Assembly (NCBI GenBank): GCA_030679895.1
Contig: JAUXSN010000003.1
Location: 5,517-69,516 of the forward strand
DNA length: 64,000 bases
Origin: Candidatus Moraniibacteriota bacterium
GTDB taxonomy: Bacteria > Patescibacteriota > Minisyncoccia > Moranbacterales > UBA11712
Reading direction: 5' to 3'
Shown here piece after piece: positions 4,066 to 61,596 of the stretch. A model generated the notes under the pieces. It was given only the letters and a program-made list of their open reading frames with translations. It was not told where the DNA came from and ran no database searches. The position numbers and the translations under genes are program-made. The number at the start of each line of letters is the position of its first letter. Position 1 is the stretch's first letter.

Positions 4066-6141
4066 TCACCGCTTAGAATGATTTTTTATGGGCGTGAATT
4101 CGGAATCACCGTATAAATTGAGGTAGGCTTCAGGGACTCCCTGGCAATAGCTGTCTAATTCACATTTTTCACATTTTTCGCATTTGGAAAAACCGGCTGG
4201 TTTCGTCTCTTGATCGCCAAAGTCATTTACTTTTATACCCGCCGCGGAAATTCTCACCATCTTGATAGAATTGTCGAAAAGATCGCGCCTTCTGTCGGCC
4301 GGCAAAAGGCAAAAGGGCAGCTCGATTCTGGCCCCGGGTGCCAGCTTGGCACCGCTGAATGCTTTTTTGATTTCAGAATAACGGGGACAATTTCGCGCAT
4401 AATCCGCCAAATCGCTGCTTCGAGGCAATAGTTTTCTGAAACTCAATTTTCCGACGCCTAGATTCCTAGTGACATAATCATGGATCTCAAGAACAAACGA
4501 ATAATTTTTTTTCAGAAGCAATGTGCGCATCTCTATTTCAACTCCCGGATAATCTTTTAGGATTTTCACCGCCTTAATCAGACGGGAAAAACTTCCCTTT
4601 CTGCCCGTTATTGAATCGTGCAATTTGGCGTTATGGCCGTAAATAGGCAACCTGAAACTCCTCACGCCCGCACCGATCAACTCTTTGACTTTTTTTTCGT
4701 CGACCAGCCCAAAGCCGGTGCTGGACAAGGCAATTTCCCGAAAACCCAATTTTTTCGCGTATCCGACCAGTTCGACCAAGTCGGGACAATTGAGAGGTTC
4801 GTCTCCGGTGACAATCAATTTCCCCGCCGAAAAAAATTTTCGGGCTTCGGCCAAATTTCGTTTTATTTTTTCCAAACCGGGATGATGTTCTTCATTTTTC
4901 TTGGGACGCAAAGTCCGGAAACAAAATATGCAGCGCAAATCGCATTTCGTTATTTCCTTGAGATCAAGGAAAAACTCCGTATTTTTTCCCCTTCCCGAAA
5001 CCAAGGGTTTCAGAATTTTCAATCCTTTTTCTATGACATAATCGCAAGGGGCGCCGTCGCATTTTTTTTTCAGATCGCAAAATTCGCATTTTTCGCTTTT
5101 GATGAAATATCTGTTGTCGATGAAGAAGTCCAACAGACGGAAGAGGCTGGCTTGGAGATTTTTTTTGTTTATTTTGATTGTCTTTTCTTCCATTTTATCC
5201 GGAACACAAATAGGCATTTTTTTGGAAACCAGCTTTCCTTCTTTTTTGAAACGGATCAGGTCGTCGCAAAAATCGCCAAGGAAGCAATGGACGCATCTTT
5301 CTCCACGGCAGGACATTTTTCGCCCGTTCTTCAAAAAATCTTCGAACATTCTTTGTCTTCCCTTTACTTCATCATGCATCTTTTTCGGATTTTGAATCAG
5401 ATCCTCAAAGCCTTCAAGATACCGGGGAGGAAACCTATTGGTCCAGATGAATATTTCCCGATTTTTTGAAAATTGAAAGGCCTCTTTCAAGTTTGGCAGG
5501 GCTTTTTCGATGTCATAAAACAATTTATTTCTGTTTTCCCAGGCTCTGCCAAAAGGAATGATTTGGAGAAGATCAAACTCTCGCACGCCAAAATTGATGA
5601 AATATTTGAGGATATCCGCCAAATTTTCAACATTCATTCCGTTTATAACAATATCCTGATTGACAATCAGGCCGTCAACGACAAGCGCGTTTTTGAGACC
5701 GATTAGCGCTTGTTTGAATGACCCTTTGATTTGCGTGAGGCTGTCATGAAGTTCTTCCGTATGGCCATGGATGGAAAAAGTTATTTCATTAACACCCGCT
5801 CTGATGGAAGAAATAAGAAAATCCCGATAAGCAAACATTCGGCCGTTTGTTATGACTTGAATATGCTTGTATCCCATATCTTTCGCCATTTTGACAATTT
5901 CAATGAATTCCGGATGAATGGTTGCTTCTCCGCCACTCAGAACAACCTGATCGATTTTTTTCTTTCTGCCTTCTCGAAATTTTTCCCTGATTTCATCTTG
6001 AGTCAAAACAGTTCCGTTCTGTGCTTCTTTGTCCAGACAAAAAATACAGTTGTTGTTGCAAACTCTAGTCAAACGAACCCAATGCTTTTTTTTCGCGGCC
6101 GCCTGCTCTTTTTTTTCGATTTTCAGGAAGTTTTTTTTCAT
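4066..6141 (-). CDS. fused tandem double radical SAM protein (paralog of 1854..4055)
   Basis: 691 aa; CNNNCIFCLD + GGEATIHPEF and second domain CDLRCIFCFR + C-terminal CEKCEKCELDSYCQGVP; collinear with neighbour. Confidence 0.75.
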   Translation of the reverse strand: MKKNFLKIEKKEQAAAKKKHWVRLTRVCNNNCIFCLDKEAQNGTVLTQDEIREKFREGRKKKIDQVVLSGGEATIHPEFIEIVKMAKDMGYKHIQVITNGRMFAYRDFLISSIRAGVNEITFSIHGHTEELHDSLTQIKGSFKQALIGLKNALVVDGLIVNQDIVINGMNVENLADILKYFINFGVREFDLLQIIPFGRAWENRNKLFYDIEKALPNLKEAFQFSKNREIFIWTNRFPPRYLEGFEDLIQNPKKMHDEVKGRQRMFEDFLKNGRKMSCRGERCVHCFLGDFCDDLIRFKKEGKLVSKKMPICVPDKMEEKTIKINKKNLQASLFRLLDFFIDNRYFIKSEKCEFCDLKKKCDGAPCDYVIEKGLKILKPLVSGRGKNTEFFLDLKEITKCDLRCIFCFRTLRPKKNEEHHPGLEKIKRNLAEARKFFSAGKLIVTGDEPLNCPDLVELVGYAKKLGFREIALSSTGFGLVDEKKVKELIGAGVRSFRLPIYGHNAKLHDSITGRKGSFSRLIKAVKILKDYPGVEIEMRTLLLKKNYSFVLEIHDYVTRNLGVGKLSFRKLLPRSSDLADYARNCPRYSEIKKAFSGAKLAPGARIELPFCLLPADRRRDLFDNSIKMVRISAAGIKVNDFGDQETKPAGFSKCEKCEKCELDSYCQGVPEAYLNLYGDSEFTPIKNHSKR

Positions 6142-7577: not shown

Positions 7578-8515
7578 ATTTTTTTGACTGGCTTAAATTC
7601 TTTCCACCCTCTTCTTCGGACGTAGGCTTCCCAGACTCCGCTGCAGGAGTCAAAAAATCGGCATTCCGCGCACTCCGACCCCTTGATTTTTTTCGGCCAC
7701 TTGACGGAAGTCGGCTTGATCGCTTCTGACTTCGCGTTCTTTCTTCTCACGGCCGATTCATACTCGATAATGTTGCGTTCGGCTCCGGGAAGGACGCAGG
7801 GAGGAAGTCCGAGGACAAGTATTTCCGGACGACGGTTTTTCAGCCGCTTTTCAAACTTTTTCAAAACTCTCGCCACTTCTTTTCCGACTTTGAAATAACG
7901 TGGCACGATCTGCTCAAAGTATCTGTCGGCTCTTCCTTCCGGCAGCACCGTGTTGAATACGATCCCCTCAACGCCGTCGAAAGTCAGCATGAGCCGAAGA
8001 TAATTTTCCATGTCGCGATAATTTATTTTATTCAGCAAAAAATTGACAAAGAATCGGAAAGGGTATTTTTTGGCGAAAAAAGACAAATTGCACAGACCAA
8101 AAAAAGTTTCCTCAAAACTTCCCGGCACTCTCGTAATCGCATCATGCACTTCTTTTTTGCTCCCGTGAAGGGAAACGCTGATCTCGTTGAGGCCGGCTTT
8201 GAGCAAATTCTCGCAGAATTTTTTGTCCGCCAGCTTTCGACCGTTCGTGATGAGATCGACTTTCTTGTAGCCATATTTCATGGCCAGCTTAATAAGATCC
8301 GGAAGGGCGGGATTCAGCGTCGGTTCTCCGGAAGAGAACAAAACCCGGTCAATTTTTCCCCGCATCGCCTTGAGATCATTTTCCGCATATTTCTTCAAAT
8401 TTTTGAATTCGGCCCGATTCTGCTTGTGAAGATCCGAGCAAAACAAGCACCCGTTGTTGCAGTGGGAATTCGTCAAAATATGCAGTCTTTTTTCTTTTAT
8501 CTCTTTGACAGACAT
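7574..8515 (-). CDS. radical SAM protein with C-terminal Cys cluster (partial SPASM/twitch-like)
   Basis: 313 aa; CNNGCLFCSD, SSGEPTLNP, C-terminal CAECRFFDSCSGVWEAY. Confidence 0.75.
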   Translation of the reverse strand: MSVKEIKEKRLHILTNSHCNNGCLFCSDLHKQNRAEFKNLKKYAENDLKAMRGKIDRVLFSSGEPTLNPALPDLIKLAMKYGYKKVDLITNGRKLADKKFCENLLKAGLNEISVSLHGSKKEVHDAITRVPGSFEETFFGLCNLSFFAKKYPFRFFVNFLLNKINYRDMENYLRLMLTFDGVEGIVFNTVLPEGRADRYFEQIVPRYFKVGKEVARVLKKFEKRLKNRRPEILVLGLPPCVLPGAERNIIEYESAVRRKNAKSEAIKPTSVKWPKKIKGSECAECRFFDSCSGVWEAYVRRRGWKEFKPVKKI

Positions 8516-8524
8516 ACTGGTTTT

Positions 8525-9481
8525 TTATTGGACGATTAGTTCCCCGTCCCCAAACTCTTGATAATATTTTTCGAAAATGCCCGGACAAAAATCTTTTTTC
8601 GAGCACCTCAGGCATTTGTCCGGTTTCATGACTCCTTTCAGGGGCTTGAACCCTTCGGTCTCGGCCAAAACGGTCCTTTTGTCCCTTCTAATTTTTTTGA
8701 GGGTGATTTGAAAATGCCATTTAGTGTCACTGGAGCGATCTTTAAGCTCTCCTAGGACACAAACCGGCAAACCGAAAAATTTTATTTTTCGGGATTTTTT
8801 TGCAACCAGTCTCGCGAGTAATGGAATTTTTTTTCTTATTTCGCCCAAAGGCACGACCAGATTCCGATAATTTTCCAGCGCCCGGCCTTCCGGAGCCAGA
8901 CCGGAAAACAATATTTTTTTCACTCTCTTATATCGACTGATAAAATCAATTATTCGGGTGAGTTTGGAAAAGTTATGTTTCGTTATCAAAATCCTCGCTG
9001 AAATTTTTGTTTCTGCCGGAATTTTTTCGACATTTTCCAAAGACTTTTTCAGTATGGAGAAACTTTTTCCGTTTCGAGTATGAAGGTTGTGCAGCCTGTC
9101 GATATGTCCGTAGATTGAGAAAGACAAATAGTCGATATGCGGCATAATTTTTCGGCAAAAATTTTCCTCGGAAAATCTTCCGCCGTCAGAATTGACGAAA
9201 ACCTGATAGCGCAATCTCTTGGCAAGTTTTGCTATTTCCACAATGTCGGGATGCAAAGTCGGCTCCCCGCCGGTGAGAACCAAAAAATTGAAACCCGCTT
9301 TCGCCCGTTTTTTTATCTCCCTTTCCACTTCCGCTTTCGCGACAAACTGGCCCTTGAAGTCTTCCAGCAGATCCTTTTCTCCGCAAAAAATGCAATTGTT
9401 GCGGCAAGAAGAGGAAATATAAAATTCCAGGCGTTTGATTTCGCTGTTTCTTTCTTCAATATTTCGTATATTTTTTTTCAT
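8525..9481 (-). CDS. radical SAM protein with C-terminal Cys cluster
   Basis: 318 aa; CRNNCIFCGE, TGGEPTLHP, C-terminal CLRCSKKDFCPG. Confidence 0.75.
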   Translation of the reverse strand: MKKNIRNIEERNSEIKRLEFYISSSCRNNCIFCGEKDLLEDFKGQFVAKAEVEREIKKRAKAGFNFLVLTGGEPTLHPDIVEIAKLAKRLRYQVFVNSDGGRFSEENFCRKIMPHIDYLSFSIYGHIDRLHNLHTRNGKSFSILKKSLENVEKIPAETKISARILITKHNFSKLTRIIDFISRYKRVKKILFSGLAPEGRALENYRNLVVPLGEIRKKIPLLARLVAKKSRKIKFFGLPVCVLGELKDRSSDTKWHFQITLKKIRRDKRTVLAETEGFKPLKGVMKPDKCLRCSKKDFCPGIFEKYYQEFGDGELIVQ

Positions 9482-18241: not shown

Positions 18242-18247
18242 CAAAAA

Positions 18248-18290
18248 CCTAAGATCCGATCTTGGGAGCGTCCCAAGATCGGATCTTAGG
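18248..18290. repeat. CCTAA..TTAGG-type perfect palindromic hairpin (20-bp arms, gcg loop)
   Basis: cctaagatccgatcttggga-gcg-tcccaagatcggatcttagg between two plus-strand genes. Confidence 0.85.
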
Positions 18291-18302
18291 TGACTAAACA
18301 TA

Positions 18303-20230: not shown

Positions 20231-20238
20231 CCATTTTT

Positions 20239-20281
20239 CCTAACATCGAATGTTAGGAGCGTCCTAACATTCGATGTTAGG
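20239..20281. repeat. CCTAA..TTAGG-type perfect palindromic hairpin (20-bp arms, gcg loop)
   Basis: cctaacatcgaatgttagga-gcg-tcctaacattcgatgttagg between beta-propeller gene and ECF sigma gene. Confidence 0.85.
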
Positions 20282-20295
20282 AAGTGCTCCGAACT

Positions 20296-25981: not shown

Positions 25982-26923
25982 TCAAGGGCGGTTGTGGAAA
26001 ACCGATGCCGCCGCGCCCAAAAGCGGCGCATTTTCGCCTAAAGCGGTGATTTCTAGCTTTGGCAATCGCAAGAATTTATCTATATTTTTTTTCGCATATT
26101 TAAGCGCTAAATCACCGTTATTCAGCGCCACCGCCCCACCCAAAACAATGATTTCCGGATCATAGGCCGCGACGACATTTGATATCCCCCGCCCGTTGAT
26201 TTTTCCCAGTTCTTCCATGAATTGCAGGGCAACTTTATCTTTTTTCCGCGCCGCGTCGAAAATATCTTTCGCCGCACTTGGAAACTTAGTTTCCAAGTGA
26301 TTTTTTTTCGTCCAAATTCTGAAAAATTTCGGGATATTGTTTCCCGAAGCGTAAGCTTCCCAGTGGCCGCGTCCTTTTCCGCAGGTGCAGGGCAGATTAT
26401 ATTCGGTATCAACTGTCATATGTCCGATTTCCGCCGCATTCCCGTTTTTTCCAAGAAGTAAATTTCCATTGACAATCGCTCCCCCGCCAATTCCGGAAGA
26501 AATTGTGATATAAACCAAATTGGAAAATTTCTTTCCCGCGCCAAAATATTTTTCTCCCAGCGCGCCCGCATTGCAATCATTTATGAAAAGAATTGGCAAT
26601 CCAAATGCTTTTTTAAGCGGCTCTATGATCGGAATAAACTTATACTTAATATTCGGCGTATTCACAATAGCGCCTTTTTTAAAGTCAATTGGACCAACTG
26701 CGCTCACTCCGATTCCTTTGAATTTTTTGATGCCATATCCGCTGATTAATTTCTTTATCTCATCGATCACTTGAATAGTGACAGTATTTCCGCTTTCCCC
26801 TTTTTGAATAGTCTTTGCGGAATTTTTCGCGATTATTTTTCCTTTTTCATCAACAATCGCCGTCCGCATATTCGTCCCGCCGATGTCAATCGCAATCGCC
26901 AAATTATTTGCTTTTTTTGCCAT
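25982..26923 (-). CDS. ROK family glucokinase/sugar kinase
   Basis: Start taken at MAKKANNLAIAIDIGGTNMR (DxGGT); CTCGKGRGHWEAYASG zinc motif; AAEIGHMTVD; upstream part of 362 aa track ORF lacks homology. Confidence 0.8.
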   Translation of the reverse strand: MAKKANNLAIAIDIGGTNMRTAIVDEKGKIIAKNSAKTIQKGESGNTVTIQVIDEIKKLISGYGIKKFKGIGVSAVGPIDFKKGAIVNTPNIKYKFIPIIEPLKKAFGLPILFINDCNAGALGEKYFGAGKKFSNLVYITISSGIGGGAIVNGNLLLGKNGNAAEIGHMTVDTEYNLPCTCGKGRGHWEAYASGNNIPKFFRIWTKKNHLETKFPSAAKDIFDAARKKDKVALQFMEELGKINGRGISNVVAAYDPEIIVLGGAVALNNGDLALKYAKKNIDKFLRLPKLEITALGENAPLLGAAASVFHNRP

Positions 26924-27029
26924 ATCTTTAATTTTATTTATCTGCCAACATTCTACCACAAAAAGAAAAGTCCTCCCAAGGTCGGTTAACCCCGGAAGAA
27001 CTTCGCGAAATTTTGGGCGCGCGTTGGCG

Positions 27030-27197
27030 CTATGGGTTTTTCCTGGCGATGATGATAATATCGTCGCCATCGTATCTGATTTCCTTTACCCGCTCGCCAA
27101 TTCCTTGCAGAGCAGCAAGGTTATCATAAGGAATGTCGAGAATTTGAGCTACTCTTCCGCCTTTTCGTCTTTCTTCAATGATGTCAACCAAAGCCAT
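27030..27197 (-). CDS. small hypothetical protein (55 aa)
   Basis: MALVDIIEERRKGGRVAQILDIPYDNLAALQGIGERVKEIRYDGDDIIIIARKNP; AGGAGA immediately upstream of ATG; hairpin+T-run further upstream on same strand. Confidence 0.3.
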   Translation of the reverse strand: MALVDIIEERRKGGRVAQILDIPYDNLAALQGIGERVKEIRYDGDDIIIIARKNP

Positions 27198-29744: not shown

Positions 29745-29787
29745 CCTAAAGTTAAGCTTTCGGATTTTCCTAAAGCTTAACTTTAGG
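29745..29787. repeat. CCTAA..TTAGG-type palindromic hairpin
   Basis: cctaaagttaagcttt-cggattttcc-taaagcttaactttagg between thyA and DHFR-like gene. Confidence 0.8.
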
Positions 29788-30787
29788 AACCGCCGACGTT
29801 GACGATTTCCGCTTTGATCGCCGGATGGGGATCATAGCCTTCAAGCGTGAAGTCTTCGTAGACAAAGTCGTCGATATCTTTTTTGTCCGGATTCAGCTTT
29901 AATGTCGGAAAAGACCTCGGCTCGCGCGCCAATTGCTCTTTCACCTGCTCGAAATGATTGGAATAGATGTGGACATCGCCAAAAAAATGGACGAACTCGC
30001 CGGCCGGAATTCCCGTCACTTGCGAAACCATTTGAAGAAGAAGCGCGTAGCTCGCTATATTGAACGGCACGCCCAGAAAAAGATCGGCGCTTCTTTGATA
30101 CATTCCCAAATTCAATTTGTCGTTCACCACCGCGAACTGAAAAGTGGTGTGGCAAAAAGGAGGAACTTCGTTTTTGTTTTGCGGGGAGGCCATAGCGTAG
30201 ATGAAGTCCGGATTCCAGGCCGAAACGCAATATGATTTTCGGTACGGCTTGTCTTTGAGGCCTTTGATGCAATAACCCAGTTGGTCGATAAGATGTCCGT
30301 CACTTCCCGGCCATTTGCGCCACATCCGGCCGTAGATTGTGACTAGATCGCCCCATTTTTTCACAAAATCGCTGTCCGCCGGTTCCGATTTCAGCTTCGC
30401 TATGAAATCTTTTTGTTCCAAATCTTGCTCCGGCGCGTTCTCAAGGCAGTGTTTGTGATATTTTTTCCAGGCCCACTCATCCCAAATGTGGACATCGCGA
30501 TCGACAAGATATTTGATGTTCGAATCCCCGGTCAGAAACCAAAGGAGTTCTTCAAAAACCCCCCGATAGAAAACTTTTTTCGTCGTAAGGAGGGGGAATC
30601 CCTGCGCGAGATCAAAGCGAATCACCCTCCCGAAAACCGAACGGATGAAAGGCAGATCTTCGCCTTTTTTCCGATACTGCTCCTGAACTTCCGGCGTGAG
30701 GAATAGCGGCTTATCCGCGCCATTTTCGAGAATATCCTTGATAAGATTGAGATATTGATATTCGGGATGGGTTTGGTTTTTATTCAT
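29783..30787 (-). CDS. thyA: thymidylate synthase
   Basis: 334 aa; ...PFCHTTFQFAV..., SADLFLGVPFNIASYALLLQMV, conserved ThyA core throughout. Confidence 0.9.
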   Translation of the reverse strand: MNKNQTHPEYQYLNLIKDILENGADKPLFLTPEVQEQYRKKGEDLPFIRSVFGRVIRFDLAQGFPLLTTKKVFYRGVFEELLWFLTGDSNIKYLVDRDVHIWDEWAWKKYHKHCLENAPEQDLEQKDFIAKLKSEPADSDFVKKWGDLVTIYGRMWRKWPGSDGHLIDQLGYCIKGLKDKPYRKSYCVSAWNPDFIYAMASPQNKNEVPPFCHTTFQFAVVNDKLNLGMYQRSADLFLGVPFNIASYALLLQMVSQVTGIPAGEFVHFFGDVHIYSNHFEQVKEQLAREPRSFPTLKLNPDKKDIDDFVYEDFTLEGYDPHPAIKAEIVNVGGS

Positions 30788-33473: not shown

Positions 33474-33617
33474 TGTCATCCCGGGCTTGACCCGGGATCC
33501 AGAAAATAAAATTTTGTGCAAAGAAACTGGATTCCCGCTTTCGCGGGAATGACACTGCATTTATATTTTTGAGTTTTGCGCTGTGGCTTTGCGCTTTGCA
33601 TTTTGAGTTTTGCGTTT
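33474..33617. repeat. intergenic palindromic element, family B (TGTCATCCCGC cruciform core + gttttgc-repeat arm)
   Basis: tgtcatcccgggcttgacccgggatccag...ctggattcccgctttcgcgggaatgaca then gagttttgcgctgtggctttgcgctttgcattttgagttttgcg; copies also at 44003-44148, 55010-55119, 59041-59262. Confidence 0.8.
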
Positions 33618-34650
33618 ATTTTAATTTAGTTTGCCCTCTCTTCGTCATTTCAAATTTCAATTCGCCAAATTCCATTGTGCGATCGGGATTGATTGTCACT
33701 TCCACTCCCAGACCTTCCATCGTTTCTTTTTGAAAATACTGGTCGAAGACGAAATTTCCAAGAGAATAATATATTTTTTTGCTGTTGTATTCCTCGCTGT
33801 TTTGAACAACGTGCGGGTGTGTGCCGATGATTGCGTCCGCGCCGGCATCGATGAACCGGTAGGCGAGAGCGCGAACCGCTTCTCCCGGATCGCCCGTTTT
33901 GTATTCCGTCCCCCAATGCGGGCAGACGATAACGATATCCGACTGCTCTTTCGCCGATTTGATGTCTTCGATCGCCGCTTCAATCGAATCCGTGACGGAA
34001 TAGTTATAACTCACAAACTCAATTCTCATTCCTTCAATTTCTTTCTCCCTACTTGGAAACTTAGTTTCCAAGTCGCCTATATTTCCGAAGTACTCCACTC
34101 CCGCTTCATCCAGATATTTTTTCGTCTGCTCGACACCCTTCGCGCCTTGATTGAGAATATGATTGTTGCCCAAATTAATTAGTTTTATATTATTCTCCGC
34201 GAGAGTCTTTGCCACTGCTGGATCAAAAGTGAAAACAAAATTCTTGCTTTCGCCAATTTTTGTATTTACACTGATTGACTTGTTTTCCGTTATCGGCCCT
34301 TCGAGGTTGCCCACGACAAGATCATATTCGGACAATTTTTCTTTCAGCGACTCGAGAGCGTAGTTGTAGTCGCCGCTGCCATATTTCCCCACCGCCTCCC
34401 GAATATGCCGGTCAAACATCATATCCCCGATGAATAGAATTTTGATGGGTTTGTTATCGTTTATGTTATTTTCCGGCGCTGGCTTGTTTTCGCTTCTTAA
34501 ATCAACCGCGCTTTGCATCGAGGAAATGCTTTTTTGCTCCTGCGCTTTCTCTTCTTTTGCTTGCTTTCTCAAATCAACATTTTGCGCACAACCCGCTAAA
34601 AATAGCACGCTAAGAAATAAAAAAGTAATTTTAAATTTTACATTTTGCAT
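33616..34650 (-). CDS. CapA/PgsA family metallophosphatase-like protein (poly-gamma-glutamate capsule synthesis family), lipoprotein
   Basis: 344 aa; signal FLAGC; ILFIGDMMFDR, GNHILNQG, VCPHWGTEY, IIGTHPHVVQ; contains in-frame palindromic insert encoding LETKFPS. Confidence 0.75.
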   Translation of the reverse strand: MQNVKFKITFLFLSVLFLAGCAQNVDLRKQAKEEKAQEQKSISSMQSAVDLRSENKPAPENNINDNKPIKILFIGDMMFDRHIREAVGKYGSGDYNYALESLKEKLSEYDLVVGNLEGPITENKSISVNTKIGESKNFVFTFDPAVAKTLAENNIKLINLGNNHILNQGAKGVEQTKKYLDEAGVEYFGNIGDLETKFPSREKEIEGMRIEFVSYNYSVTDSIEAAIEDIKSAKEQSDIVIVCPHWGTEYKTGDPGEAVRALAYRFIDAGADAIIGTHPHVVQNSEEYNSKKIYYSLGNFVFDQYFQKETMEGLGVEVTINPDRTMEFGELKFEMTKRGQTKLK

Positions 34651-35479
34651 TTTGACTTTTACACTTATATATTATGTCTCCCTTTTCATCCGTCCTCAAA
34701 ATTTCGACGCCTTTATTCTTGAATTCTTCCAGAATAATTTCCGTCGGATGTCCGTAGGAATTGTTTTTGCCGACGGAAATTACGGCATCTTTCGGCGTCA
34801 CCTTATCAAGAAACGCGTCCGTTGTCGAATATTTCGAGCCATGATGGGCCACTTTCAGGATATCCGCGTCGATGTTTTCGCCGCTTTCAAGAATTTCATT
34901 TTCAGCGGAGGATTCGATATCGCCCGTGAAAAGAAAAGAGCTCTCTCCAAAATCCAGCCGCGTTACGACCGATTTGTTGTTCGCTTCGCCGATCGCGGGA
35001 TCAACTAGCGCTTGGGGATGAATAATTTTTATTTCGGCGTCATCGAAGCTTATCTTGTCGCCCCGCATAGCTTCGATTGTCTCAACTTTGTTATAGTCCA
35101 AAATCTCTTTCCATTCCTTATAGACCTCGGTATTCTTTCCCGCGCCAGTCGTCAAAACTTTCCCGATCTTATAATTCCTCGCCGCTTCCACGAGCCCCGC
35201 GATATGATCCTTGTCCGGATGAGTCGCGATCACGACATCAATCTCGTTGTCAAAATAGGGCATATATTTTCCCAGTTTCGCCATTTCCACTTTCCCGCTC
35301 GGCCCGCCGTCAATCAAAATCTGCTTTGTCCCTTTTTGAATCAAAATTGAATCCCCCTGCCCGACATCGAGAAAAATAATCTGTAGGTGTCCGACACCTA
35401 CAGAAATTTGGTAGGAGAGATAGGCAAATATGGCCGCTAAAGCCGCGAGCGTTATTAAATAAAGTTTTCTATTCTGCAT
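34631..35479 (-). CDS. ComEC-type metallo-beta-lactamase domain protein
   Basis: Start at internal Met MQNRKLYLITLAALAAIF; HPDKDHIAGL and VAHHGSKYS MBL motifs. Confidence 0.65.
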   Translation of the reverse strand: MQNRKLYLITLAALAAIFAYLSYQISVGVGHLQIIFLDVGQGDSILIQKGTKQILIDGGPSGKVEMAKLGKYMPYFDNEIDVVIATHPDKDHIAGLVEAARNYKIGKVLTTGAGKNTEVYKEWKEILDYNKVETIEAMRGDKISFDDAEIKIIHPQALVDPAIGEANNKSVVTRLDFGESSFLFTGDIESSAENEILESGENIDADILKVAHHGSKYSTTDAFLDKVTPKDAVISVGKNNSYGHPTEIILEEFKNKGVEILRTDEKGDIIYKCKSQNAKCKI

Positions 35480-36932
35480 TGTTTGAGATTTCTTTGCAAT
35501 TTTTAATCTTCCAAAAATATAAAATAACAAACAGTCCCGCGTAATAAATTGTTGCATAAACCCACCCGAAATTTTTTATTTCTACCGACGCCCAGGATAG
35601 ATCGCCCAATCCCTGGACGATGGCTAATTCCAATTTCAGGAGAAGATACGGAATGAACCCGACAAGCTTCCCCAGCGGAACAAAAATAAAACCGGCTATC
35701 CCCGCCGCGAAGCCCGTCCCCATTATATAAGGTATCGCCGGCAAAATCAGTAAATTCGCAAGAGGGGAGACCAAAGAAAGTTTTTCAAAGGAATTGAGAA
35801 GGATCGGCAAAACGAAAATTTGAGCCGCCATCGTCATCAAAATTGTTTCCTTCAAAATGTTCGGACTCCCCTTTTGAAAAAATTTTTCAAACAGGGGATA
35901 GAGCCAGACGATTCCGAGCGTGGCAAAAAACGAAAGCTGAAAACCGGCGTCGTATCTCAACAATAACGGATTTATGAGAAGCATAACAGCGGCCGCCAAA
36001 ATAATCGCGTTTGTGGAGTTCGCGAGCCTCCCCTCTTTCATCGCCCAAATGACCAGCGCGCCCATAATCCCCGCTCTTACGGCAGAGCTCGGCGCGCCAG
36101 TCATGAGAACAAAGATCACAATTCCCAAAACCGCAAAAGAAAACACTTGCTGGCGCCAAAGGCCCAAAAAGATCCCGAGCCACATCAGAAACGCGGCCAC
36201 AATCGTCACGTTGTATCCCGAAACGGCCACCGTGTGCGTCGTTCCCGTTCTTGAAAATGCGTCGTTCAAATCCTTCGTCATTCGTTTGCTGCCTCCCAAA
36301 AGCAGTCCTTTGAGATACGCGCCTTCCGGATCGGGAAAAATCGCCGAAAGTTTTTCTTCAAACTTGTTTTTGACTGCCAAAACTGCTGAATAAAATATGC
36401 TTCCTTTGTTTTTTGCGACCGCTGTGATTTGCGCCCTGTTGCAAACGCGATGAATCCCGTCCTTCGCGAGATACATTTGATAATCAAAGTTCGAATCTTC
36501 AAAGTTCTTGGGTTCCTGCAAAATACATTTTGTTTTCAGCTCATCGCCATAATTATATGCCGGGTATATTTCTGTGTTTATGAGTATCTTGTTTTTCTCA
36601 CCGTCCTCGACTATAACCTTTTGATATTTTTCGTCTGTTTCCGGTTCCTTGATGACCGCCGCTGAAAATTCGACCGAACCGAGTTTCTCGCCGGCTAAAT
36701 TATTTTTTGCGCTATCAAGCGAAATATTCGTTCGCCAAATTCCAATGGCCAAAAACAAAATAGCCGCACTCGCGACTATAGCTTTTTTGTTTTTATAATT
36801 GATGATAAATATAACTATTCCCGAAGCAACAAAAACCAAGAGAGAAAATTTTTCAAACCGAAAAAACGACGCCAAAAAAACACCGAGCAAAAAACAAAGG
36901 GATAATATCAAAAATATTCTGGATTTGGTCAC
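35469..36932 (-). CDS. ComEC/Rec2 competence membrane channel domain protein
   Basis: 487 aa polytopic membrane protein with N-terminal domain + competence-type TM bundle; GTG start; overlaps 11 nt with downstream MBL ORF. Confidence 0.65.
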   Translation of the reverse strand: MTKSRIFLILSLCFLLGVFLASFFRFEKFSLLVFVASGIVIFIINYKNKKAIVASAAILFLAIGIWRTNISLDSAKNNLAGEKLGSVEFSAAVIKEPETDEKYQKVIVEDGEKNKILINTEIYPAYNYGDELKTKCILQEPKNFEDSNFDYQMYLAKDGIHRVCNRAQITAVAKNKGSIFYSAVLAVKNKFEEKLSAIFPDPEGAYLKGLLLGGSKRMTKDLNDAFSRTGTTHTVAVSGYNVTIVAAFLMWLGIFLGLWRQQVFSFAVLGIVIFVLMTGAPSSAVRAGIMGALVIWAMKEGRLANSTNAIILAAAVMLLINPLLLRYDAGFQLSFFATLGIVWLYPLFEKFFQKGSPNILKETILMTMAAQIFVLPILLNSFEKLSLVSPLANLLILPAIPYIMGTGFAAGIAGFIFVPLGKLVGFIPYLLLKLELAIVQGLGDLSWASVEIKNFGWVYATIYYAGLFVILYFWKIKNCKEISNNAE

Positions 36933-42724: not shown

Positions 42725-42767
42725 ATATTTCCTACTAATCCCTTTCCTAATCAACGAGATTAGGAAA

Positions 42768-54361: not shown

Positions 54362-54997
54362 CTAAAAAATCGCAGCTTTCCCAAACGGCCACGCCCGGAG
54401 CATCACTCTTCCCATAATATCATTCACGGGAACCGGGCCCCAGGAGCGGGAATCGGAACTATACTTCCGGTTGTCGCCCATCACGAAATATTGTTCGCTC
54501 GTGAGCTGGATGATTTGATCTCCGGAAGTAGTCTCTGCCGGGGGCAGATACGCGCTTTCATCCAAAATAAATCCATTTGGATTTTCGGAATTATATATTT
54601 TCACCTCGTTGTCCTTTATCTCAATTTTTTCTCCCTGAAGGCCGACTATTCTTTTTATGTAATACACCGATGGATTTTTGGGATAGCGGAAAACCACCAC
54701 CTCGCCTCTTTTCATTTCTTTGAAAGGATTCACGGTAAAAAAATTGATCTCTTTCTCGCCGTAATCGAATCCGACATCCGTTGTCTTGTATCCCAGCTCG
54801 CTGATGATGAGATACTCTTTGTCCTCAAAATTGGGCTCCATCGAAGCGCCCTGAACAAAAAACGGCTGGACAAGAAAAACCCGCAAAGGGACGATGATCA
54901 AGACCACCCAAAGCACGATCTTTATCATTTCCCAAAATATCCCGCCCGCTCCGTATGTTTCCTCTTGTTTTTCCTCGATTTGTTCGTTTTCGGTCAT
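54362..54997 (-). CDS. lepB: signal peptidase I
   Basis: 211 aa; TM then VQGASMEPNF (Ser box), GDNRKYSSDSR, GPVP. Confidence 0.8.
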   Translation of the reverse strand: MTENEQIEEKQEETYGAGGIFWEMIKIVLWVVLIIVPLRVFLVQPFFVQGASMEPNFEDKEYLIISELGYKTTDVGFDYGEKEINFFTVNPFKEMKRGEVVVFRYPKNPSVYYIKRIVGLQGEKIEIKDNEVKIYNSENPNGFILDESAYLPPAETTSGDQIIQLTSEQYFVMGDNRKYSSDSRSWGPVPVNDIMGRVMLRAWPFGKAAIF

Positions 54998-55009
54998 AAA
55001 AAAAATAAG

Positions 55010-55119
55010 CTCACTAAATTGTCATCCCGCACTTGCCTGTCCGCCTCTGGAGGAATGCGGGATCCAGAAAATCTACATTGTTCATACGCACTAAAAAAAC
55101 GCTAGATTCCCGCTTCCGC
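55010..55119. repeat. intergenic palindromic element, family B core
   Basis: tgtcatcccgcacttgcc...ggaggaatgcgggatccag...ctagattcccgcttccgcgggaatgaca. Confidence 0.8.
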
Positions 55120-55178
55120 GGGAATGACAAAAAGGATATTCCGCGATTCCGTTTGCATAATAGCAGAAAAAAAGGCAT

Positions 55179-56873
55179 ATGACAAGTTTGAGATTCAACC
55201 CTATAAATTGCCCAAGTTCGAGCCTCGGAACAGTTCAGCTTTTTAGAAAATCCTTATTAAGCTATACTGAAAATATGCCCAGCCTTTTTTTCTCGCCCAA
55301 GGGCGATAATTTTCAGCATCATAGCGAAAGCCGAACGCAAAATCGCGCGTCCGGAAAAAGAAGATTTTTCTTTTGGCTCGTTATCGCTTTTTTGATCTTT
55401 GGCATTGTTTTTTTGGCTTCAATCGCGTTTGCCTATAAATTCTATTCCACAAGCCAAAAAGTGATCGATAACGGGCAGAATACTTCATTTATTCAAAGCC
55501 TGAAAGACATTGCCTTTTCGGACCGCAAGGCTTTGCGCGGCGAGAAATACGGGAGGATCAATATTTTGCTCGTGGGACTCGCCGGGAAAAATTATCCCGG
55601 CGCGAACCTCACCGACTCGATCATTATCGCGAGTGTCGACCCGAAAACTTATCAGACTGCCCTGCTTTCGGTTCCTCGAGATCTTTATGTCCCGATCCCG
55701 GGCACAAATTCCTCGACGAAAATCAACGCGCTCTATGCCCGCTCCGAGGATGCGGACGCAAACGGAAAATCCGGCATTGAAAATCTGAAATATGCGCTTG
55801 CGGATATCACCGGCCAGCCCATTGACTACTACATCGCTCTCGACTTCGACGGCTTCGAGCAGATCATCAATGAACTCGGCGGCATCAAAGTCCAGGTTCC
55901 CAAGGATTTGCACGACGAACGCTATCCGGGGCCGAATTACAGTTACGAGACTTTCGATATCAAAAAAGGACTTCAAACTCTCGACGGCGAGACAGCCTTG
56001 AAGTTCGCCCGCACTCGGCATAACGAAGACGGCGATTTCGGCCGGGCCTATCGGCAGCAGCTCATTCTTGAATCCGCCCGCTCGAAAGCATTTTCCCTGG
56101 GAACAATTCTCAACATTCCCGAGCTCAACAATATGCTTGATACGCTTGGCGAGCATTTGCGCACGGACATTCCGCTCGATGAATTCAACTCATTCATCGA
56201 TCTCGTCAAAAAAATCGACACGCACACAACGACCAACAAAGTTCTCGATGCCGGAAAACCGGATAGCCTCACAGCGGTTTCTCATGTTATGCTGGGGAAT
56301 GTCCGGGCTTTCATACTCATACCCCGGACCGGAAATTATGACGAAATTCAGGATCTCGCCAAAAATATTTTCGATCTTGATCTCATAGCGCGCAAGAAAC
56401 AGGAAATTAAAAACGAAAATGCGACCGTTGCAATCGTGAACGAAAGCGGCGTGAACGGTTTTGACGGAAAATTGAAAAATCTGCTGGATAAATTTGACTA
56501 TCAGGCGGAAATTGCCGTTTGTAGAGACGCATCGAATGCGTCTGCATGCCAACAGAGATGGATTCAATCCGTCTCTACGGATACAACCGTTTATGACCTC
56601 ACCGGTGGCCTCAAACCATTTTCCCTTGAAGACCTTTCGAAAAAATTGGGCGCGAAGATCGAAAATGGAAGTTTAGCTTCCACCGTGGAAGCTAAACTTC
56701 CACCGTCCGCCAATAAACCCGATTTCATTCTCGTCGCCGGATCGGATATCACAGACAAACTGAACTACGAAGAAAATTCCGTGCAGGATCTCGAGAACGG
56801 ATACGACCATCAGCAAGTGGACGAAAAAACATATATTGATTTGCTGAAAAAAGGAAGTAGTCAGAGATTTTAG
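55179..56873 (+). CDS. LytR-CpsA-Psr (LCP) family cell-envelope phosphotransferase
   Basis: 564 aa; TM anchor; INILLVGLAGKNYPGANLTDSIIIASVD, LLSVPRDLYV LCP core; long C-terminal extension containing palindromic insert. Confidence 0.75.
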   Translation: MTSLRFNPINCPSSSLGTVQLFRKSLLSYTENMPSLFFSPKGDNFQHHSESRTQNRASGKRRFFFWLVIAFLIFGIVFLASIAFAYKFYSTSQKVIDNGQNTSFIQSLKDIAFSDRKALRGEKYGRINILLVGLAGKNYPGANLTDSIIIASVDPKTYQTALLSVPRDLYVPIPGTNSSTKINALYARSEDADANGKSGIENLKYALADITGQPIDYYIALDFDGFEQIINELGGIKVQVPKDLHDERYPGPNYSYETFDIKKGLQTLDGETALKFARTRHNEDGDFGRAYRQQLILESARSKAFSLGTILNIPELNNMLDTLGEHLRTDIPLDEFNSFIDLVKKIDTHTTTNKVLDAGKPDSLTAVSHVMLGNVRAFILIPRTGNYDEIQDLAKNIFDLDLIARKKQEIKNENATVAIVNESGVNGFDGKLKNLLDKFDYQAEIAVCRDASNASACQQRWIQSVSTDTTVYDLTGGLKPFSLEDLSKKLGAKIENGSLASTVEAKLPPSANKPDFILVAGSDITDKLNYEENSVQDLENGYDHQQVDEKTYIDLLKKGSSQRF

Positions 56874-56938
56874 ATTTATGTGATAAAATAACCGTAGTCC
56901 CGAAAAAAGGCCGCATATATGCGGCCACTACATAATTT

Positions 56939-57499
56939 ATGAAAACAATGTTAATCGCCGGGCTCGGCAATCCGGGAAAAGAATATGCGCGTACCCGCCA
57001 CAACGCCGGGTTTATGTTTGTGGATTATTTTTGGGAAGAAAATCGGGAAAATTTTTCCGAGTGGGAGTTCAGCAAAAAATTGAATTCAGAAATTTGTTTT
57101 GGAAAATTCGAAGGAAAAAAAATAATTCTCCTGAAGCCGCAAACTTTTATGAATCTCTCGGGCGAGGCGATCGCGGCGGCACTCAAATATTACAAAATCC
57201 CCTGTCGAGGTGAAACCTCGACAAACTTGATTGTCGCACATGACGAGATTGATTTGCCGCTTGGGACATTTCGCGTTTCCCAAAACGCTTCTTCCGCCGG
57301 CCACCAGGGCGTCCAGAATATAATCGACCTCTTGGGAACGAAAGATTTTACGCGGCTTCGGATTGGGGTTGATAGCAGAAAAGGCAAAAAGATCGCAACG
57401 GAAAAATATGTGCTGGGGAAATTTACAATTATTGAACTGCGCACTATTAAAGATGTTTTAAAAAAATCCACTGATGAACTAATTAAAGATCTTTCTTAA
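56939..57499 (+). CDS. pth: peptidyl-tRNA hydrolase
   Basis: 186 aa; MLIAGLGNPGKEYARTRHNAGF, LIVAHDEIDLPLG. Confidence 0.85.
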   Translation: MKTMLIAGLGNPGKEYARTRHNAGFMFVDYFWEENRENFSEWEFSKKLNSEICFGKFEGKKIILLKPQTFMNLSGEAIAAALKYYKIPCRGETSTNLIVAHDEIDLPLGTFRVSQNASSAGHQGVQNIIDLLGTKDFTRLRIGVDSRKGKKIATEKYVLGKFTIIELRTIKDVLKKSTDELIKDLS

Positions 57500-59268: not shown

Positions 59269-61596
59269 ATGAATCTAATAATAGTAGAGTCTCCCACCAA
59301 AGCCAAAACCATTTCCAAATTCTTAGGCCCTAAGTATAAGGTGCTGTCTTCCTATGGGCATATGCGCGATCTTCCGGAAAAGAAAATGGGCATTGATATT
59401 GAAAAAAATTTCGCTCCTCAATATGTCATCAATCCTAAATCCGAAGAAAAGGTTGAAATTCTCAAAAAAGAAGCCAAAAAATCCGAGAAAGTTATCCTCG
59501 CGACTGATGAAGACCGCGAGGGAGAAGCTATCGCCTGGCATCTTTCGGAAATTTTGAATCTCGATCCCCGAGAAAAAAGCCGGATTGTTTTTCACGAAAT
59601 TACCAAAAAAGCCATTGAAAAAGCTCTCGACAGCCCCCGGGAAATAAATTTCGATCTGGTTGACGCCCAGCAGGCCCGCCGGGTGCTGGATAGGCTGGTC
59701 GGCTTCGAGCTCTCCCCTTTTCTCTGGGAAAAAATCAGGCGCGGACTTTCAGCCGGACGCGTGCAGTCCATCGCCTTGCGTCTCATTGCTGAGCGCGAGC
59801 GGGAAATCGAGAAATTTAATAAGGAAGAATATTGGACAATCTCCGCTGACTTGGAAACTAAGTTTCCAAGTGGAAACTTAGTTTCCAAGTTTAACGCAAA
59901 TCTCACCGAACAAAACGAGAAAAAAATTGAAGAGGTCATCACTCTCAAGCTTTTCGCCGGAGACTACAAGACCAGAAAATCAATCATTGCCGATGAAAAA
60001 ACGGCCAAAGTTATAAAAGCGGAACTGGAAAAAGCGGCTTTTGGCGTCCGGGAAATCGTCAGAAAGGAAACGAAGCGCACTCCGCCGCCTCCCTTCACCA
60101 CCTCAACTCTCCAGCAAGCCGCCATCAATTCTTTGGGATATTCGGCGAAACTGACGATGATGCTGGCGCAGAAACTTTATGAACAGGGCTTCATCACCTA
60201 TATGCGAACGGACAGCATGAACTTGTCTCTCGAATCCATGCTGGCCGCCCGAAAAACCATTGAAAAAATTTTTGGAAAAGATTACGCGCTTCCCGATCCG
60301 CGATTCTTCAAGACCAAATCCAAAGGCGCCCAGGAGGCCCACGAAGCTATCCGGCCGACCGATACGGGCAAAACTCCGGACGAACTCGCCGGCTCCCTGG
60401 ATGAAAAACAGCTTCGCCTTTATCGGCTGATCTGGAGAAGGATGATGGCCTGCCAAATGCAACCGGCCGCGCTGAACTCGGTAAAGGTGACCATTGACGC
60501 AAAGGGCGGGGAAAATAATTATACATTCCAGGCCAACGGATCGACCGTGAAATTCGACGGATATTTGAAAGTATATGGGGATTCACCCCTCACCACTTCT
60601 CCAAATAAAAATGATGAAAATGATAATAATTCAAAATCCAACAAACCGAGTGAAGTGGTGAGGGGCAAGCTGCCGGTCAGCGAAAATATTTTGCCGCCGC
60701 TCGAGGAAAAAGAAGTTTTGGATCTGGCGGAAATCAACACCAGCCAGAAGTTCACCGCTCCCCCGCCCCGCTACAGCGAAGCGGCTCTGGTCAAAGTGAT
60801 GGAAGAAAACGGGATCGGACGCCCGTCGACATACGCGCCGACGATTTCGACCATCATTGACCGTAAATACGTTGACAAAAACGAGGAGAAAAAACTTTTT
60901 CCTCTCGAGATCGGCCTGTTGGTAAATGATTTGCTGGTGGAGCATTTTCCGAAAATCGTCGATTCGCAATTCACGGCCGGGATGGAAAAAGATCTGGACG
61001 AAATCGCCGAAGGAAACAAAAAATGGGTACCGGTGATAAAAGCATTCTACGAACCGTTCCACAAAAATTTGAAAAATAAATCCAAGGAAGTGAAGAAGGA
61101 AGACCTAATGGAAAAAATCGGCCGCCAATGTCCGGAGTGCGGCGGGGATCTCGTCATGAAATTCGGCCGCTTTGGAAAATTTATCGCCTGCATGAAATAT
61201 CCCGAGTGCAAATATACCGAAAAAACCGCGGAAGAGAAAAAGGAAGAAGCGGAAAACAGCGGACATATTTGCGAGAAATGCGGCGCTCCAATGGTAGTGA
61301 AAAGGGGCCGCTTCGGCGCTTTTCTTGGCTGTTCCAGATACCCGGAATGCAAGACTATCCAAAAAATTGAGAACAAAACGGGCGTAAAATGCCCGAAATG
61401 CAAAGTTGGCGATATTCTGGAGCGTAAATCAAAACGGGGAAGGATTTTTTACGGCTGCAGCAAATATCCCGCCTGCGATTTTTCTTTGTGGAACAAGCCC
61501 ACCGGCGAACTTTGCCCAAAGTGCCAAAATCCGATGGTATATCAAACGAAAGGAAAAGAAAAGTGTTCGAACAAAGAATGCGGATATGAAAAATAA
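59269..61596 (+). CDS. topA: DNA topoisomerase I
   Basis: 775 aa; Toprim MNLIIVESPTKAKTI..., type IA core, multiple C-terminal C4 zinc ribbons; contains tandem in-frame palindromic insert (LETKFPSGNLVSKF). Confidence 0.9.
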   Translation: MNLIIVESPTKAKTISKFLGPKYKVLSSYGHMRDLPEKKMGIDIEKNFAPQYVINPKSEEKVEILKKEAKKSEKVILATDEDREGEAIAWHLSEILNLDPREKSRIVFHEITKKAIEKALDSPREINFDLVDAQQARRVLDRLVGFELSPFLWEKIRRGLSAGRVQSIALRLIAEREREIEKFNKEEYWTISADLETKFPSGNLVSKFNANLTEQNEKKIEEVITLKLFAGDYKTRKSIIADEKTAKVIKAELEKAAFGVREIVRKETKRTPPPPFTTSTLQQAAINSLGYSAKLTMMLAQKLYEQGFITYMRTDSMNLSLESMLAARKTIEKIFGKDYALPDPRFFKTKSKGAQEAHEAIRPTDTGKTPDELAGSLDEKQLRLYRLIWRRMMACQMQPAALNSVKVTIDAKGGENNYTFQANGSTVKFDGYLKVYGDSPLTTSPNKNDENDNNSKSNKPSEVVRGKLPVSENILPPLEEKEVLDLAEINTSQKFTAPPPRYSEAALVKVMEENGIGRPSTYAPTISTIIDRKYVDKNEEKKLFPLEIGLLVNDLLVEHFPKIVDSQFTAGMEKDLDEIAEGNKKWVPVIKAFYEPFHKNLKNKSKEVKKEDLMEKIGRQCPECGGDLVMKFGRFGKFIACMKYPECKYTEKTAEEKKEEAENSGHICEKCGAPMVVKRGRFGAFLGCSRYPECKTIQKIENKTGVKCPKCKVGDILERKSKRGRIFYGCSKYPACDFSLWNKPTGELCPKCQNPMVYQTKGKEKCSNKECGYEK

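Follow-up and report, generated by a model that had tools for sequence, protein, structure and literature searches.

We identified a family of short palindromes that is most probably the hairpin of a REP/RAYT-type system (repetitive extragenic palindromic sequences and REP-associated tyrosine transposases) in Patescibacteria, or the Candidate Phyla Radiation (CPR), and found this system to be widespread in the phylum. The palindrome was recognized in a 64,000-nucleotide stretch of DNA from a Candidatus Moraniibacteriota bacterium (assembly GCA_030679895.1, contig JAUXSN010000003.1, positions 5,517 to 69,516; designated the window). Here the 21-mer CTTGGAAACT[A/T]AGTTTCCAAG, which consists of two 10-bp arms and a single central base, occurred within the genes for a ROK-family sugar kinase (26277-26297), a CapA-family protein (34052-34072) and DNA topoisomerase I (topA, 59850-59870). 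A second unit in topA (59869-59889) was the 21-mer with two mismatches, and no match to the 21-mer was obtained in 100 dinucleotide-preserving shuffles of the window. The initial annotation had described these copies as an invader of coding sequences similar to Rickettsia palindromic elements (RPEs). Their positions and gene-sense readings (LETKFPS for all three exact copies, GNLVSKF for the second topA unit) were confirmed, and a dispersed palindrome is indeed tolerated in-frame in unrelated housekeeping proteins. The element compares better with REP/RAYT systems than with an enzyme-less RPE; a cognate gene of the HUH/Y1 transposase type was found to be bracketed by the same palindrome.

Association of the palindrome with RAYT-like transposases

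Three to four copies of the palindrome within 700 bp were detected only at transposase genes (loci L028, L026 and L052). In these loci, as well as in L040 and L013, an open reading frame (ORF) of 213–227 amino acids lay between copies of the palindrome that were exact or differed in a single base, one of them 10–50 bp upstream of the start codon and another 0–25 bp after the stop codon. The ORF itself held one or two additional in-frame copies, read as LGNLVSK (general form LG-xxxx-K). The same bracketed arrangement, with a GC-rich hairpin top (ACTTGGCGCTTCGGGCGCCAAGT), was present in L005. Altogether, the cognate repeat flanked the transposase gene at 14 loci (L028, L026, L052, L040, L013, L005, L030, L064, L048, L002, L080, L081, L082 and L084), some of which had only one clear flank; L061 was cut at its 3' end. 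In Moranbacteria GW2011_GWC2_40_12 (LBYD01, ~0.92 Mb), ~15 exact copies on three contigs were found compared to one cognate gene; thus, the repeat is dispersed and more numerous than the gene.

All three transposases tested contained the Pfam domain Y1_Tnp (PF01797; 30, 39.5 and 24.9 bits, gathering score 23), and the only NCBIfam match was REP_Tyr_transpos (NF047646). The HUH motif NPNHYHF and the Tyr motif AYVNLN were invariant in 56 sequences. An AlphaFold2 (AF2) model (pLDDT 80.5, pTM 0.81) had its best Foldseek match in the Protein Data Bank (PDB) to 4ER8_A (E 1.2e-4, probability 1.0), the REP-associated tyrosine transposase of E. coli in complex with a REP hairpin, followed by TnpA of IS608 and ISDra2 (probability 0.97–1.0). 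The protein has a C-terminal helical extension of ~60 residues. A search at E<=1e-5 placed 4126 proteins in this family, some of which had been named RayT by the Joint Genome Institute (JGI).

Each transposase had its own hairpin. Paralogs in L030, L064, L061, L048, L002 and L005 were each flanked by a different palindrome, and the more distant of them were 33–39% identical. In each of L080, L081 and L082, a single variant (GGAAA-TCCAG-TTTCC, GGAAGCT-S-AGCTTCC and GGCGGCT-W-AGCCGCC, respectively) was common to the upstream flank and the two internal copies, and the downstream flank, where it was present (L080), agreed with it. The foot of the hairpin, ACTTGG/CCAAGT, was constant across these variants while the top co-varied. 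At the protein level, the two internal LG-xxxx-K motifs co-varied among 120 homologs.

Several features of the surroundings of these genes were observed as well. Two loci from different CPR genomes, L080 and L082, have the RAYT-like gene on the downstream side of the ribosomal-protein/secY/adk/map cluster, at a distance of a few kb. In L080 its immediate neighbors on the two sides are map (Peptidase_M24) and ruvX; in L082 several genes, among them a ruvX fragment, intervene between it and map. This near-constant region hints at vertical inheritance. L082 also holds, at 5552-5995, a truncated second RAYT-like gene with a different hairpin variant (GGAAATCCAGTTTCC) followed by a run of N; the intact gene on this contig is the one with GGCGGCT..AGCCGCC. 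In L084, a canonical IS200-like Y1 transposase of ~148 residues (8448-8894) is located 1.1 kb from the RAYT-like gene and has the hairpin CCCCGCAGCTTGCTGCGGCTGGG on both flanks.

Concerted replacement at orthologous sites

The genome of the window is distinct from LBYD01, their DNA being 72–77% identical. The three orthologous palindromes, in ROK (L001), CapA (L060) and topA (L030), were 100% identical between the two, with flanks of ~75% identity (~74% for ROK). With 75% identity per base, the chance that all 63 of 63 bases agree is ~1e-8. We attribute this identity to concerted evolution, in which intragenic copies would be kept matching a master copy at the transposase locus. Insertions and deletions (indels) adjoin the elements, as illustrated by a 21-bp indel immediately beside the CapA palindrome between the window and L060, and the palindrome was absent from the CapA ortholog in L083.

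Orthologous sites could also be occupied by another variant. In a RIFOXYB1_FULL_43_19-type genome, TTGGAAG-CCGAA-CTTCCAA was present at the transposase flank, at the MnmA site and at the ROK site, and it differed in 5 of 15 inner positions from the variant that the window and LBYD01 have at the same orthologous positions. Such switching, as judged from sequence, indicates concerted evolution. Independent drift cannot yield it, and either templated homogenization or re-insertion at the same address is needed; we infer that the transposase, rather than gene conversion, carries out the homogenization.

These data bear on two other explanations. One is a selfish RPE-like palindrome that has no enzyme, spreads by replication slippage or recombination and is tolerated in proteins, its adjacency to transposases arising because hairpins target the locus or because the gene landed among hairpins. 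In-frame copies in loops of unrelated housekeeping genes, indels next to copies and the occupation of the same loops by several unrelated palindromes are all consistent with this idea. However, it does not predict a regular flanking geometry at 14 independent transposase genes, each paralog with its own cognate palindrome, nor internal copies that co-vary with the flanks, and it leaves the concerted switching at orthologous sites unexplained. We therefore regard it as improbable.

A similarly small chance may be given to a function for the host, with the hairpin being retained as a DNA-binding site (an operator, a parS-like site or a gyrase site) or as an mRNA structure that influences stability or translation, and the relation to the transposase being secondary. 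The extreme conservation amid diverging flanks would fit such a role, as would the non-coding palindromes of other families in the window, which are found right after stop codons in the classical REP position, and the replication origin that the window may adjoin (both described below). On the other hand, if the site were fixed by a host factor, its 15 inner bases would not vary together with the transposase flanks. The palindrome matched neither the parS consensus nor an Rfam family, and the intragenic hairpins have no T-tract and hence are not terminators.

Palindromes and host proteins of the window

The palindromes of the window and their host genes are listed in Table 1. The perfect palindromes extend past the 21-mer, to 25 bp in ROK (with the ends CACTTGG...CCAAGTG), 23 bp in CapA and a 42-bp inverted doublet in topA. 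A related palindrome in the LytR_cpsA_psr (LCP) gene, also reported by the initial annotation, is in-frame as described, and its end was measured at 56702 instead of 56704. It has 18-bp arms and a single central base and encodes, in gene sense, GSLASTVEAKLPP. The inner sequence type of this doublet (LGSLASK / LEAKLP) was also found in the transposase genes P0295 and P0353 and, in other CPR genomes, at the position of the CapA palindrome (P0157, P0170 and P0196). When folded as single-stranded DNA, the two single hairpins had energies of -8.8 and -10.5 kcal/mol and the doublets ~-19 kcal/mol, with z-scores between -5.5 and -9.6.

Table 1. Hairpins of the palindrome family and their host genes in the window.
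Feature	Position	Strand	Details
Single REP-type hairpin in ROK gene, 25-bp perfect palindrome CACTTGGAAACT[A]AGTTTCCAAGTG (gene sense)	26275..26299	-	In-frame LETKFPS, residues 259-265; -10.5 kcal/mol, z -6.4
Single REP-type hairpin in CapA/PGA_cap gene, 23-bp palindrome	34051..34073	-	In-frame LETKFPS; -8.8 kcal/mol, z -5.5
REPIN-like doublet in topA, two units with inverted center base, hairpin with 20-bp arms	59849..59890	+	In-frame LETKFPSGNLVSKF; -19.6 kcal/mol, z -8.3
Variant-hairpin doublet GGAAGTTTAGCTTCC / GGAAGCTAAACTTCC, degenerate foot, in-frame near C-terminus of LCP	56666..56702	+	-18.5 kcal/mol, z -9.6
ROK-family sugar kinase gene, host of copy 1	25982..27070	-	Pfam PF00480, E 1.2e-60; 1790 homologs
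CapA / PGA_cap gene, host of copy 2	33616..34650	-	Pfam PF09587, E 3.2e-60
DNA topoisomerase I gene (topA), host of doublet	59269..61596	+	Pfam Toprim, Topoisom_bac, three Zn ribbons
LytR_cpsA_psr (LCP) gene	55179..56873	+	Pfam

In the ROK, CapA and TopA proteins, the copies are located in loops, a placement that the initial annotation had proposed. In an AF2 model of the ROK kinase (pLDDT 88), LETKFPS forms the loop between helices 246-256 and 267-275. This loop is equally long in distant orthologs without the palindrome and 4 residues shorter in the closest orthologs without it, and many other orthologs have variant palindrome peptides at exactly this place (LEIGFPS, LETEFPS, LEAELPS and LEVRFPS). 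A clean empty site was sought in the closest long-contig relative (L079, ~79% identity), whose ROK site was 12 nt shorter with no definable junction. In CapA, the copy is located in a variable loop that is a hot spot, with a net difference of ~+2 residues; across homologs this loop has singles, doublets (LETKFPSGNLVS, LEIGFPIGNPISK and LEAKLPLGSLASK), other palindromes (MEVEPPRGGSTSK) or none, and at least five other palindrome types occur there in other lineages. The CapA protein of the window was 100% identical to P0121 from an NCBI Moranbacteria metagenome-assembled genome (MAG). In TopA, the 14-residue doublet takes the place of a beta-hairpin of domain D2, for which the E. coli protein (1ECL) has STTTPSGEALA; the replacement adds a net 5–6 residues. 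In close relatives (79–88% identity), the topA site has other palindrome doublets (L085, L087 and L088) or none (L086 and L089).

The palindrome and its peptide were missing from distant orthologs of ROK, CapA and TopA. By these alignments, the copies are lineage-specific, as anticipated by the initial annotation, yet they are not the clean 7- or 14-residue insertions that it envisaged, since the net differences were zero or 4 residues in ROK, ~2 in CapA and 5–6 in TopA.

Two additional observations concern these proteins. The first ~50 residues of the 362-residue ROK ORF (window 26920-27070) had pLDDT <50 and are missing from most homologs (306–350 residues); given this low confidence, the true start is probably an internal Met (MAKKANN). 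Two CapA homologs, P0139 and P0205, contained inserts of 25–30 residues in the same variable loop, for example VIARNEVMKQSRDDENGSGSPRPFGARDD, which resemble translations of another, longer repeat family.

Occurrence and reading frames in other genomes

A scan of one genome per species revealed the exact 21-mer in 77 loci, nearly all of which were CPR MAGs from many classes (Moran-, Parcu-/Paceibacteria, Zambryski-, Nealson-, Giovannoni-, Sungii-, Taylor-, Niyogi- and Saccharibacteria). The source assemblies came from independent studies and assemblers (GW2011, RIFCSP, metaSPAdes and MEGAHIT). Phage carriage does not account for this spread, as only 1 of 2.9 million viral contigs contained the 21-mer. 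Several MAGs labeled as Gammaproteobacteria or Bdellovibrionales (L004, L007, L016, L037, L040, L074, L076 (CAZXPA MAG) and L067) contained the palindrome many times; a cognate RAYT-like gene was present in L040, and CPR-like orthologs occurred among them, namely PheRS-beta in L067. These bins are probably misclassified or contaminated. Two matches in Firmicutes (L031 and L034) had C/G flanks in place of A/T and may be unrelated.

A flank logo of 90 sites showed A at position -1 in 85 and T at position +1 in 86, with weak C/G further out, giving the consensus (C)A-CTTGGAAACT[A/T]AGTTTCCAAG-T(G); neither a target duplication nor a direct repeat was seen in it. Single copies predominate, and the doublet architecture of topA was present at 9 of 92 CPR sites. 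Single/doublet polymorphism was observed between L017 and L057, and MnmA and other host genes differed among genomes in the presence or absence of a copy, in single or doublet state and in frame. Among 20 host ORFs tested, 18 had clear Pfam domains; the domains detected include PGK, DnaX, DinB, UvrB, a MiaB-like enzyme, MnmA, ArgRS, PheRS-beta, TGT, TsaD, Tmk and PilD.

Coding-like readings at 93 CPR sites were LETKFPS (22), LGNLVSK (19) and WKLSFQ (8); 50 sites were in long ORFs and the remaining 43 in short ORFs or non-coding DNA. After orthologs were collapsed, 35 host-site clusters remained, with 18 LETKFPS, 13 LGNLVSK and 7 WKLSFQ readings (38 in sum, because three clusters carry two different readings). 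Stop codons (TAA or TAG) are present in two of the six frames, which were never used, and the other four are stop-free. A uniform frame and orientation, which the initial annotation reported for every copy, holds within the window and does not extend to the 93 sites. With three readings among the 35 clusters and stops in the remaining two frames, the uniform frame of the window is a small-sample impression.

The use of several frames also bears on the idea that LETKFPS is an ancestral or convergent functional motif whose palindromy is a by-product of codon choice. The ROK loop is equally long in orthologs that have no palindrome and often contains residues resembling L/I-K/E-x-K-F, as this idea would predict. 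However, the same DNA is translated in three frames and is found in non-coding regions as well, which effectively refutes it; furthermore, distant orthologs are devoid of the motif, and a perfect palindrome of 23–25 bp in >15 unrelated gene families is not expected from selection on a peptide. We consider this origin very improbable. The least credible explanation is that the palindrome, for example as part of an adapter or linker, arose artificially during sequencing or assembly. The shortness and perfection of the palindrome and the exclusive use of MAG data might suggest this, but it is effectively refuted by the occurrence of the palindrome at orthologous positions in assemblies whose studies and assemblers were independent, by its constant compatibility with the reading frame and by its co-variation with the neighboring gene.

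Proposed mechanism and its implications

Under the REP/RAYT-type reading, which we favor, a cognate HUH/Y1 tyrosine transposase of ~215 residues would be encoded elsewhere in the genome of the window. By analogy with E. coli TnpA-REP and IS608 TnpA, this RAYT-like enzyme would recognize the hairpin when it is extruded on single-stranded DNA, using the invariant foot ACTTGG/CCAAGT. Catalysis by the transposase and a single-stranded DNA intermediate are suggested by the same analogy: the enzyme may nick and rejoin DNA, thereby copying hairpins to new addresses or overwriting resident ones. In these gene-dense genomes, surviving copies are located just after stop codons or within genes. Intragenic singles of 21 bp and doublets of ~42 bp preserve the frame, with four of six frames open, and the encoded peptides are accommodated in surface loops or beta-hairpins.

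Several observations weigh against this reading. The copy number is low (~15 exact copies in the ~0.92-Mb LBYD01), and the hairpin has no GTAG or CGTC tag in the flank logo of 90 sites, a tag which defines most described REPs. The NF047646 scores of the transposases were 21.9–33.8 bits, far under the equivalog cutoff of 80, which places them, on sequence grounds, as distant relatives, or a distant subfamily, of characterized RAYTs; a sequence search against PDB gave no meaningful match, and only the fold search did. A tblastn search of the window with the transposases found no such gene (best E 0.23), and the proposed link between the window genome and a transposase is drawn from homology with LBYD01 and other genomes. 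The case for concerted evolution is built on one same-genome example (two intragenic sites) and on peptide-level co-variation. Finally, neither a clean insertion junction nor an empty site could be identified, and loop lengths are similar with and without the element, so that insertion of the element itself is what we infer and not what the alignments display.

A bolder proposal, which is possible though rather doubtful, is that an HUH transposase has been domesticated and continues to replace hairpin "cassettes" at fixed addresses, including essential genes, so that seven-residue loop segments of housekeeping proteins are rewritten in concert with changes of the master hairpin. If this is true, the two in-frame copies of the transposase would link the sequence of the protein, and perhaps also its expression, with the DNA on which it acts, and the process would amount to enzyme-driven concerted evolution of coding sequence, beyond tolerated insertions.

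REP/RAYT systems are known almost wholly from Proteobacteria, and the spread and uniformity of REPs are still unsettled. The family described here offers >4000 transposase homologs in poorly known Patescibacteria, and its constant foot and variable top allow the substrate and the enzyme to be read together. As copies are located at alignable positions in conserved genes, orthologous coordinates can be used to map their gain, loss and replacement, which is rarely possible with intergenic REPs. With regard to annotation, repeats rather than adaptation may be the source of short lineage-specific "insertions" in CPR proteins, and the palindromes are expected to hamper assembly and alignment of CPR genes.

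Other palindromes and features of the window

Additional palindromes were observed in the window. Perfect inverted doublets of 45–47 bp, with 21–22-bp arms each of which is itself palindromic, were present at 18247-18291 and 20237-20283. Both have the common center GAGCGTC, which contains a CGTC tag, each follows just after the stop codon of a gene, and their DNA hairpins folded at ~-24 kcal/mol (z -11). These doublets probably represent additional REP families of the classical, extragenic type. Another palindrome, TTCCTAAAG-CTTAA-CTTTAGGAA, was found at 29767-29789, with a partial copy just upstream, and at 42743-42767. The same type flanks a second RAYT-like paralog beside topA in LBYD01 (L030 1754-2416), and the ~2-kb segment that holds this paralog (L030 1564-3568) is missing from the window between 57825 and 57945. 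The palindromes at 42743 and 20237 have a common foot, TTCCTAA..TTAGGAA. A 25-bp palindrome at 35380-35404 (TCTGTAGGTGTC-C-GACACCTACAGA), near the N-terminus of a gene with a metallo-beta-lactamase fold (34631..35557, - strand), contains GTAG, is read in-frame as SVGVGHLQ and is kept in the LBYD01 ortholog (L060). This palindrome seems to represent a further family of intragenic hairpins.

When the window was scanned for Rfam families and tRNAs, tRNA-Pro was the only hit. In the region of ~55000-57000, gene orientation changes from minus to plus between a signal peptidase gene (54362..54997) and the LCP gene (55179..), and GC skew changes from negative to about zero or positive. No dnaA was found in the window; this region is a possible replication origin.

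Comparison with known systems

A full-text literature search found no paper linking RAYT, REP, REPIN, IS200 or palindromic elements of this type with Patescibacteria, CPR or Parcubacteria, in agreement with the initial annotation, which did not recognize the element as described for such genomes. In the 2026 Minerva preprint, REPs appear only as a benchmark. Two other classes of short repeats were rejected as candidates. DNA uptake sequences (DUS/USS) are non-palindromic 9–12-mers that occur about once per kb, whereas the element is palindromic and occurs ~15 times per 0.92 Mb, with 3–4 copies in the window. Miniature inverted-repeat transposable elements (MITEs) have terminal inverted repeats, a non-coding core and a target-site duplication, whereas the element is a bare hairpin whose flank logo has no direct repeat.

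With the IS200/IS605 family (IS608 and ISDra2) the system would have in common an HUH/Y1 enzyme that recognizes sub-terminal hairpins on single-stranded DNA, as suggested by the structural matches (probability 0.97–1.0). Unlike in this family, the gene has not multiplied together with its ends, the hairpin alone being dispersed, and both flanks carry the same palindrome instead of distinct left and right ends.

Similar to RPEs, the palindromes are tolerated as in-frame peptides in functional proteins of a reduced genome. RPE-1, as Ogata et al. 2000 are cited in Di Nocera, De Gregorio and Rocco 2013 (PMC3733652), is 100–150 bp long, and no transposase is associated with it in that account; the element described here is 21–25 bp, with doublets of up to 42 bp, and occurs in Patescibacteria. 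RPEs form sequence families specific to Rickettsia, and only the in-frame behavior is common to both.

The closest parallel is provided by the REP/RAYT systems of Proteobacteria, such as E. coli REPs and bacterial interspersed mosaic elements (BIMEs) with TnpA-REP, and the REPIN-RAYT systems of Pseudomonas. In both cases, dispersed short hairpins outnumber the gene, a single HUH/Y1 gene is bracketed by cognate hairpins, paralogs each have their own repeat family, REPIN-like inverted doublets occur and copies apparently persist for a long time at orthologous sites; in addition, the best structural match was 4ER8. In the REPINs of Bertels and Rainey, the mobile unit is the inverted REP doublet, and doublets here occur in topA and at 9 of 92 sites, with singles predominating. 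The patescibacterial system differs from its proteobacterial counterparts in phylum, in having the foot ACTTGG/CCAAGT rather than a GTAG/CGTC tag as the conserved part, in copy number (~15 exact copies per genome compared to hundreds), in a transposase ORF that carries one or two in-frame copies co-varying with its flanks, and in the ~60-residue helical extension and the score under the NCBIfam RAYT cutoff. Unlike extragenic REPs, about half of the copies (50/93 in long ORFs) are intragenic and in-frame.

In-frame intragenic REPs are already known from other phyla. The passages on intragenic repeats in PMC3733652 describe in-frame REPs and REP dimers within genes, e.g., of Opitutus terrae and Rickettsia conorii, note that hosts of GTAG/CGTC REPs are often replication/repair or tRNA synthetase genes (uvrA/B, dnaE) and equate Rickettsia RPE-4 and RPE-6 with CGTC-type REPs. 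The host genes identified here, which include topA, uvrB, dnaX, dinB, argS and pheT, resemble the hosts named in those passages. The repeat families and host phyla are different, intragenic copies are presented there as a minority of a large, mostly extragenic family, and concerted replacement at orthologous intragenic sites, which was observed here, is not among the features these passages report. What differs in the present system is the phylum, the missing tag, the low copy number, the location of about half of the copies within genes, the co-varying copies carried by the transposase gene itself and the concerted replacement at orthologous coding sites.

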